IMG/VR virus record: IMGVR_UViG_2698536435_000010 | Reading direction: 5' to 3' (one strand) | DNA length: 4,832 nt | DNA from: a virus | Lineage: Duplodnaviria; Heunggongvirae; Uroviricota; Caudoviricetes | In this document: positions 82 to 362 of the stretch, piece after piece | Layout: every line of letters starts with the position of its first letter | Numbering within the stretch: position 1 is the first letter of the stretch | Notes under the pieces: model-generated | The model's input: only the letters and a program-made list of their open reading frames with translations | The model's database searches: none | Told to the model about the DNA's origin: nothing | Position numbers and translations under genes: made by a program

Positions 82-297
82 ATGGCTGAAAACTCAGAAG
101 AAATTGAAGACTTTATTCAGGAAATTGAAACTGGTGAACCGCGTTTTATGTTTCCTGTTACCGACTCAAACATGAAGCGTCTTATTATCGAAGAAACGAA
201 CAAATACAGCGTTAGCCCTGAAAAATATCTCAAGGCGGCTATAGCAATTTTGTATAGCGATAATATTCTGGTGACGGATTCGAAGGTGGTGCATTAA
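82..297 (+). CDS. hypothetical acidic protein, possibly the 3' remnant of a gene cut by the IS1 insertion
   Basis: 71-aa ORF from ATG 82 to TAA 295-297. The same frame has no stop back to the IS1 junction at 52/53, and the Shine-Dalgarno before ATG 82 is weak (aaag), so the true start may lie on the other side of IS1. Confidence 0.5.
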   Translation: MAENSEEIEDFIQEIETGEPRFMFPVTDSNMKRLIIEETNKYSVSPEKYLKAAIAILYSDNILVTDSKVVH

Positions 298-362
298 TGG
301 AATTGGTGATTATCTGTTTTGTATTGATTGGTATGATTGCAGGTGCATCTATTAAAGTATAA
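297..362 (+). CDS. small hydrophobic peptide, 21 aa (MELVIICFVLIGMIAGASIKV), candidate single-pass membrane mini-protein
   Basis: ATG 297-299 overlaps the upstream stop (TAATG), suggesting translational coupling. Strong Shine-Dalgarno aaggtgg at 283-289, 7 nt upstream. Stop TAA at 360-362. Uninterrupted hydrophobic core. Too short for the supplied ORF track. Confidence 0.3.
   Translation: MELVIICFVLIGMIAGASIKV

Follow-up and report, generated by a model that had tools for sequence, protein, structure and literature searches.

Several very small inner-membrane proteins are known from enterobacteria, including KdpF (29 amino acids, aa), PmrR (29 aa), MgtR (30 aa), MgtS (31 aa), CydX (37 aa) and AcrZ (49 aa). 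Proteins of the KdpF/MgtR class are often missed by annotation, are often encoded by the first or last cistron of an operon and act on a larger membrane protein through contact between helices. Among the type I toxins of Escherichia coli, Ibs (18-19 aa) and ShoB (26 aa) are likewise very short, are extremely hydrophobic and long went unannotated. Phages also encode small inner-membrane proteins, such as the superinfection-exclusion protein of the HK97 gp15 type, which blocks the step of genome entry that depends on the tape-measure protein (TMP). Among mobile islands, the phage-inducible chromosomal island-like element (PLE) uses a large serine recombinase. Unannotated transmembrane open reading frames (ORFs) in PLE satellites have been found by synteny and shown to be both expressed and functional (PMC7182436). 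One of them is LidI of the Vibrio cholerae PLE, a small transmembrane ORF of 66 or 121 aa that was recognised by synteny between divergent islands (PMC7182436). The present text is concerned with a 21-codon ORF, termed the mini-ORF, that is found in a DNA stretch of 4,832 nucleotides (the window, meaning the whole of that stretch) from the Caudoviricetes record IMGVR_UViG_2698536435_000010. This frame is very probably an overlooked gene for a tiny membrane-spanning peptide, predicted to be translated and maintained by selection. That it is a genuine protein-coding gene and the last cistron of a short operon, carried on a phage-related island of about 11 kb, is likely.

The mini-ORF and its start signals

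The mini-ORF starts with an ATG at positions 297-299 and ends with a TAA at 360-362, as given by the window sequence and by the list of its ORFs, which bears out the hydrophobic ORF of 21 aa reported in a preliminary description of this DNA. Around the start the window reads ...GAAGGTGGTGCATTAATGGAATTG..., and both of the initiation features that had been claimed for the mini-ORF were found there, namely a Shine-Dalgarno motif (AGGTGG) at 7-nt spacing and an ATG that overlaps the stop codon of the upstream gene as TAATG (Table 1). This overlap implies, at the level of a prediction, that translation of the mini-ORF is coupled to that of the upstream gene. The mini-ORF had also been described as unannotated, and indeed no coding sequence has been placed at its position in any of the RefSeq relatives inspected.

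The peptide contains an uncharged run of 17 residues (L3-I19), bordered by E2 and K20; the uninterrupted hydrophobic core that had been proposed to be long enough to span a membrane is therefore present, at the short end of the range for such a span. With a grand average of hydropathy (GRAVY) of 2.21, the mini-ORF ranks highest among the 78 small ORFs of the window: the next independent ORF reaches 1.5, and larger values are obtained only from two nested in-frame starts of the mini-ORF itself. When all products of the island copy L001 are compared, that of the mini-ORF is the only one with a membrane-grade segment, its 17-residue Kyte-Doolittle score being 2.8 against at most 1.7 for the others.

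Conservation across homologous loci

The preliminary description had put forward as a check that the ORF and its hydrophobic character be conserved in place among related elements; this was found in every homologous locus that was retrieved. Viral and metagenome contigs were scanned with a pattern drawn from the flanks alone (ACGGATTC, 85-115 free bases, GCTGTTGACAAA), a design that would also catch versions of the mini-ORF that are frameshifted or contain stops. Once chance matches had been removed, 86 loci with 49 distinct sequences remained, and an intact ORF running from TAATG was present in 49/49. A second scan, anchored on the downstream promoter, gave 65 distinct contexts, about 63 of which are homologous; the mini-ORF is present in all of these, and no disrupted copy was found among them.

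Every homologous locus, whether reached through the flanking DNA or through a neighbouring gene, holds a hydrophobic ORF of 21-30 codons that overlaps the upstream stop as TAATG or ATGA. The type A allele, which is that of the window, encodes 21 aa, and the type B allele encodes 25 aa, for example MGLIIAWTLLGLFVGCWVGNTVNKN or MTLIVLWTLLGLFVGCIINNAVNKN. A type-B-like ORF has been kept in three E. coli genomes in which the upstream gene encodes 102 aa and is 29% identical to the usual one, the overlap being TAATG in two of them and ATGA in the other (L146). Type B is also present at two loci that lie outside the flank pattern and that were reached via a protein named as Salmonella enterica by one source. 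The most distant relatives are represented by Escherichia albertii, where the upstream forms are 97 aa in length (45% identity by phmmer, 43-48% in alignment) and the loci were reached by a second protein search and a contig look-up. The mini-ORFs of E. albertii have an ATGA overlap and read MTLIILWVLLGIVLSFAISMER (22 aa) or MTLIILWTMLGIAIAFSLSMENNTKLLCFC (30 aa), and the 30-aa version has been gene-called in one assembly. In every lineage a motif of Shine-Dalgarno type (AGGTGG, GAGGG, GAGG, GGGAG or the weaker GAGA) is found 7-10 nt upstream of the start, and it is kept even though the C-terminal codons of the upstream protein with which it overlaps differ between lineages.

Coding-type selection

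The mini-ORF is under coding-type purifying selection, as shown on the 25-aa allele only. Across 36 distinct type B sequences, the ratio of non-synonymous to synonymous polymorphism (pN/pS) was 0.27 in frame (codon bootstrap 0.15-0.43), compared with 1.09 and 1.42 in the remaining sense frames, and on 33 sequences the corresponding values were 0.24, 1.15 and 1.38; for comparison, the adjacent bona fide gene of about 107 aa gave 0.32. Allelic changes from the type B consensus comprise 31 synonymous and 30 non-synonymous changes and 0 stops, where 26% would be expected to be synonymous (binomial P = 2e-5). The other two sense frames are without a synonymous excess, and 7 and 1 stops would arise in them. 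Ten type B positions are invariant (M1, W7, T8, L10, G11, G15, C16, N20, N23 and N25), and the replacements seen elsewhere are chiefly exchanges among I, V, L, A and M. RNA structure was considered as a cause of the conservation of the ORF, and the folding of the region was not significant (z = -1.6).

Predicted properties of the peptide and a proposed mechanism

In all alleles (21, 22, 25 and 30 aa) the peptide has an apolar stretch of about 17-20 residues that holds no charged residue, and the polar C-terminal tails are short (SIKV, GNTVNKN or SMER). In the 21- and 25-aa alleles the tail contains the sole basic residue, from which the positive-inside rule predicts an N-out/C-in insertion into the inner membrane. 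All alleles also contain a small-xxx-small motif, a classic helix-packing face, in the form of G12xxxG16 in type A, G11xxxG15 in type B, and G11xxxS15 or G11xxxA15 in E. albertii. When six allele variants were scanned against Pfam and NCBIfam at E <= 10, only chance-level matches (PetG, MPN262) were returned; the peptide had no match in PHROGs, and a tblastn search of 50,697 phage records with the 25-aa allele found none even at E <= 10. Six variants of 21 and 25 aa were absent from a collection of 15 billion proteins by exact look-up, and four of the peptide sequences were searched for in the full-text literature and not found.

A mechanism can be proposed in which ribosomes that finish the upstream gene of about 100 aa would re-initiate at the overlapping ATG, aided by the Shine-Dalgarno-like motif. 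Their product would be a peptide of 21-30 residues, nearly all of it a single hydrophobic helix placed N-out/C-in in the inner membrane. Because virtually nothing would protrude from the membrane, the peptide is expected to act inside the bilayer, where its small-xxx-small face (GxxxG, GxxxS or GxxxA) may serve for self-packing or for packing against a transmembrane helix in a membrane protein of host or phage. Speculatively, the event most likely to be affected is a step of phage infection at the membrane, for example the timing of lysis or the entry of the genome; the idea is drawn from the island's syntenic copy of a tape-measure and Dit-like module of virulent Felix O1-like phages, and LidI of the PLE provides a precedent. 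In its most far-reaching form, which we consider unlikely, the proposal makes the peptide the membrane effector of an undescribed family of serine-recombinase islands of about 11 kb in E. coli, E. albertii and Salmonella. These islands would parasitise or block virulent Felix O1-like phages as an enterobacterial counterpart of PLE, and the peptide would control lysis timing or genome entry via intramembrane helix packing.

Alternative explanations

A real membrane peptide need not work by binding a partner, and as a special case it could be a membrane-damaging toxin, either type-I-toxin-like or an abortive-infection effector, that, once the operon is switched on, would oligomerise in the inner membrane and collapse the proton-motive force, with cell death or early lysis as the outcome. 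The mini-ORF is carried on a mobile phage-related island, its size and composition are like those of toxins of the Ibs or ShoB type, its GRAVY compares with a value of 2.44 computed on an IbsC sequence, and the GxxxG face could serve self-association. The replacements are mainly of one hydrophobic residue for another, as if general hydrophobicity were the main constraint, but the invariant W7, T8, C16, N20, N23 and N25 of the 25-aa allele argue for more than bulk hydrophobicity. Unlike the known type I toxins, the mini-ORF is coupled to an upstream gene and is without a promoter or leader of its own. No toxin model of NCBIfam or Pfam was matched, and no Rfam family was found anywhere in the window at E <= 1 (a scan of the intact island L002 returned only the IS3 frameshift pseudoknot and chance-level microRNA matches). 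The minus strand in or near 297-362 holds no promoter-like site, a result that together with these scans is still compatible with a novel antisense RNA, and a toxin is on balance unlikely. It might instead be that the act of translation is what matters and that the peptide is irrelevant, with ribosomes on the 3' part of the operon transcript protecting it, for instance, against Rho or RNases or affecting the adjacent promoter and hairpin. The conserved stop/start overlap and Shine-Dalgarno-like motif do point to an initiation site that is maintained, and the ORF always ends about 25 nt ahead of the highly conserved promoter. Purifying selection at the amino-acid level, invariant residues and retained hydrophobicity would however be unexpected if ribosome passage alone counted; the regional RNA is not unusually structured, and a strong independent promoter sits between the ORF and the hairpin, which is not the layout of an attenuator. 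A role for translation without the peptide is accordingly very unlikely. A transcription-attenuation leader peptide was tried as a related candidate and was rejected, given the promoter between the ORF and the hairpin, the lack of significant folding and the amino-acid selection.

The mini-ORF could also be a chance frame in the T-rich DNA between a gene and a promoter, open and hydrophobic by accident and carried along by linkage. With 62 ORFs of at least 20 aa in the window, a frame of 21 codons is by itself unremarkable; the window allele is too invariable for selection to be demonstrated on it, and the relatives are all fairly close. That no disrupted copy occurs in about 63 distinct contexts, that the synonymous excess is found in the mini-ORF frame only (P = 2e-5), that the other two sense frames would hold stops and that the ORF is kept in three or four strongly diverged allele types beside nearly invariant promoter DNA make such an accident highly improbable. 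Least probable of all is a lipoprotein precursor, which could apply to the 25-aa allele only: residues 1-15 would form a signal peptide, [LF][VIC]G-C16 a lipobox and the remainder a mature lipopeptide of 10 residues. The lipobox consensus is [LVI][ASTVI][GAS]C, which the [LF][VIC]GC of this allele resembles; G15 and C16 never vary, and in 36/36 sequences position 13 is F or L and position 14 is V, I or C. Against this, there is no positively charged n-region, the window allele is without a lipobox (its only cysteine, C7, is preceded by V-I-I) and the 22-aa allele of E. albertii has no cysteine at all, so that the feature is not common to the family.

The reading of the mini-ORF as a gene for a membrane peptide has to be weighed against a number of observations that tell the other way. 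The apolar stretch, with 17 residues, has only the minimum length expected of a membrane span, and both the translation of the peptide and its insertion into the membrane are predictions. All loci come from Escherichia and Salmonella, which gives the comparison a modest evolutionary depth, and the ORF offers few sites. The homology between types A and B is weak, resting on position, on M-x-L-[VI]-I and on a GxxxG. For type A itself there are only 8 distinct sequences, with a pN/pS of 0.42 on 8 variable sites, and it shows no significant synonymous excess (in the 4 sequences captured, 1 change is synonymous and 3 are non-synonymous). Because type A varies too little, the case for the window allele rests on its position, coupling and hydrophobicity and on the G-x-x-x-G that it has in common with type B. 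One antisense frame of type B is open as well, with a pN/pS of 0.47 and no stops; antisense coding was examined as a candidate and rejected, its only trace being a partial GTG-started ORF in L002 that has no counterpart among the listed ORFs of the window and that was judged a probable shadow of the sense frame. As to function, the explanation proceeds by analogy. No covariation was seen between the type of mini-ORF allele and the hydrophobic, glycine-rich TMP segment; each of the three allele types is accompanied by the same segment, so that the comparison is uninformative. The island may be a satellite or a defence element, and a satellite nature is only suggested, by its Ounavirinae-like TMP and Dit-like genes and its large serine recombinase. 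In the window, finally, an IS1 insertion has taken out the promoter of the operon together with codons 1-26 of the partner gene; because the 5' part of the operon is thus cut off, this copy of the mini-ORF may be unexpressed.

The upstream partner gene and the downstream promoter region

The features that surround the mini-ORF are collected in Table 1. The protein encoded by the intact upstream partner gene (107 aa) had no meaningful match in Pfam, PHROG, PADLOC or NCBIfam, where only sub-threshold chance matches were seen, and none by tblastn against phages. An AlphaFold model of moderate confidence (pLDDT 70, pTM 0.63) shows a strand followed by helices, twice over. The best matches of this model in the PDB are weak (E = 0.17, TM about 0.4) and are to small subunit chains of the F-plasmid relaxosome, which we take to be TraY, a tandem ribbon-helix-helix protein. 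The partner protein may, on the strength of this model, be a DNA-binding regulator, possibly of the tandem ribbon-helix-helix type, and the TGTTA repeats that follow the mini-ORF can tentatively be regarded as a plausible operator for it.

Table 1. Coordinates of the mini-ORF and of surrounding features (window positions unless a locus is named)
Feature	Position	Strand	Remarks
Mini-ORF, type A allele	297-362	+	21 aa, MELVIICFVLIGMIAGASIKV; predicted single-pass membrane peptide with G12xxxG16
Shine-Dalgarno-like AGGTGG	284-289	+	7 nt ahead of the ATG, within the last codons of the upstream gene
TAATG stop/start overlap	295-299	+	Upstream ORF 82-297 ends with TAA at 295-297; one base common to stop and start
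Partner gene, 3' part	53-297	+	81 codons and stop of a gene of about 107 aa; window 53 aligns to L001 6001; intact gene at L001 5922-6245
TGTTA / TGTTA / TGTTGA direct repeats	364, 375, 385	+	10-11 bp spacing; overlap the -35 of the downstream promoter
Near-consensus sigma-70 promoter	387-415	+	TTGACA, 17 nt, CATAAT with TG extension; 11/12 promoter positions
Hairpin	423-447	+	Begins about 3 nt downstream of the predicted transcription start; T-run behind it in the window allele
Island stretches	53-2470 and 4088-4832; L149 7442-18900; L001; L002; L150-L157		
IS1 end, terminal 52 bp	1-52		96-100% identical to the IS1 ends of phage and plasmid records; homology to the island starts at 53
IS3-family insertion sequence	about 2471-4087		orfA 2489-3016, orfB 3052-4047; splits the tape-measure gene

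The stretch of about 50 bp that holds the repeats and the promoter (364-415) is nearly invariant across loci, whereas the mini-ORF just upstream occurs as several diverged alleles. This stretch has the look of an operator and promoter that serve the tail-gene operon. The stem of the hairpin behind it is altered on both sides between loci (GGGAGAG/CTCTCT, GGAAGAG/CTCTTCC and AGAGAGAA/TTCTCTCT), and the T-run that would make it an intrinsic terminator is found in some alleles, including that of the window, and is absent from others. Such a layout, in which transcription meets a terminator directly behind its promoter, hints at regulated read-through. The hairpin is separate from the mini-ORF and marks the end of the upstream transcription unit. 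The rest of the leader, which is about 450 nt in length in total, spans 448-812 and has no conserved ORF; it contains well-conserved blocks such as TTCTGAGTTGGAAAGGTGCAATGCTTTTCG, together with two more terminator-like hairpins (585-605 and about 683-713), and it matches nothing in Rfam. This part may represent a structured leader or a small RNA.

The host island

The element that carries the mini-ORF is a phage-related, integrative chromosomal island of about 11 kb, for which no description was found in the literature. Among 5426 complete E. coli genomes, 478 (about 9%, or about one in eleven) have the locus, in every case in the chromosome, and the island is also present in E. albertii and Salmonella. 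Intact copies are bounded by a large serine recombinase at one end and by a small resolvase-like serine recombinase at the other, and the insertion sites vary (yecE, wrbA, tonB/yciI and others). From left to right, the island holds a variable part with or without a Dam methylase, a helix-turn-helix (HTH) protein or an HNH endonuclease, and then three or four small genes, the last of which is the gene of about 100 aa that precedes the mini-ORF. The near-consensus promoter and the ORF-free leader follow, and to their right are genes of about 236 aa and about 70 aa, a tape-measure gene (Pfam TMP_3) and a Dit-like baseplate gene. The island TMP and the Dit-like protein have about 29% and about 70% identity, respectively, to their counterparts in virulent Felix O1-like phages (Ounavirinae), where the two genes are also adjacent and in the same order.

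The protein of about 236 aa had no meaningful match in the four collections used for the partner protein (sub-threshold chance matches only), nor by tblastn against phages, and neither it nor the 69-aa island protein has detectable similarity to the phage tape-measure chaperones that are encoded at syntenic positions. Its N-terminus (...YINGKKVD; window 813-851) has the short motif INGKKV in common with the N-terminus of the tape-measure chaperone of phage mistaenkt (L155 3088-3130), which is at the syntenic position; the two proteins are otherwise dissimilar (E = 0.16 in a single comparison). Just downstream of the small serine recombinase gene, some island variants have 1.9-2.2 kb without an annotated gene (L002 2360-4240, L001 2321-4564, L156 3781-5644). 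In L002 this stretch contains no ORF longer than 110 aa and nothing detected by Rfam, and other variants have the Dam methylase and HTH gene at the same site; it may represent degraded genes or a long non-coding region. The E. albertii variants hold a second hydrophobic ORF, of 58-59 aa and with a 17-residue Kyte-Doolittle score of 2.5, which lies on the minus strand between the left-hand genes (L150 6899-7075) and which has been gene-called in the collection without being assigned to a family.

The window matches an E. coli chromosomal region, in many genomes, at 85-92% identity from base 53 onward. Its island copy is defective owing to the IS1 and IS3-family insertions. The tetranucleotide GTAT is found at both junctions of the IS3-family element (2467-2470 and 4084-4087) and is likely to be a target-site duplication.

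Proteins of fewer than 30 residues are systematically missing from annotation, and the mini-ORF is present in about one in eleven of the complete E. coli genomes. In the islands checked it is the only membrane component, or one of only a few, and the tail genes of the island point to an interaction with virulent Felix O1-like phages, which are used in typing and therapy. If the peptide is functional, it offers a handle on the role of an uncharacterised island and would be among the shortest known membrane effectors encoded by a mobile element. Its significance would rise if the island proved to be a satellite or a defence element against Felix O1-like phages with the peptide as its membrane component.

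Comparison with known systems

The HK97 gp15-type protein is comparable in that the mini-ORF, too, is predicted to encode a small inner-membrane protein and is located next to a tape-measure module. However, gp15 is larger and belongs to a separate 'moron' with its own promoter and terminator; the mini-ORF product is smaller and is not known to be related to it in sequence, and it shows no covariation with the hydrophobic segment of the TMP. The resemblance to Ibs and ShoB lies in very short length, high hydrophobicity and similar GRAVY. The mini-ORF differs from them in being coupled to an upstream gene, in having no promoter or leader of its own and no NCBIfam match, and in that neither an antisense RNA gene nor a promoter for one was detected. 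With LidI the mini-ORF has in common that it is an unannotated small ORF with a predicted transmembrane span, that it is conserved by synteny between divergent island variants, that it is found on a compact integrative island and that it occurs as variants of length and sequence; at 21-30 aa it is shorter than the 66 or 121 aa of LidI, and the two are likened by description and context. To the KdpF/MgtR/AcrZ class it is similar in having a product of less than 50 aa with one predicted transmembrane helix and, for the 25-aa allele, a coding signature. It is shorter than the members of that class (21-30 aa), it is carried on a mobile phage-related island, and no relationship to them was found in Pfam or NCBIfam. 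The mini-ORF is a new family within a well-known kind, that of overlooked small membrane proteins, and not a new kind of system.

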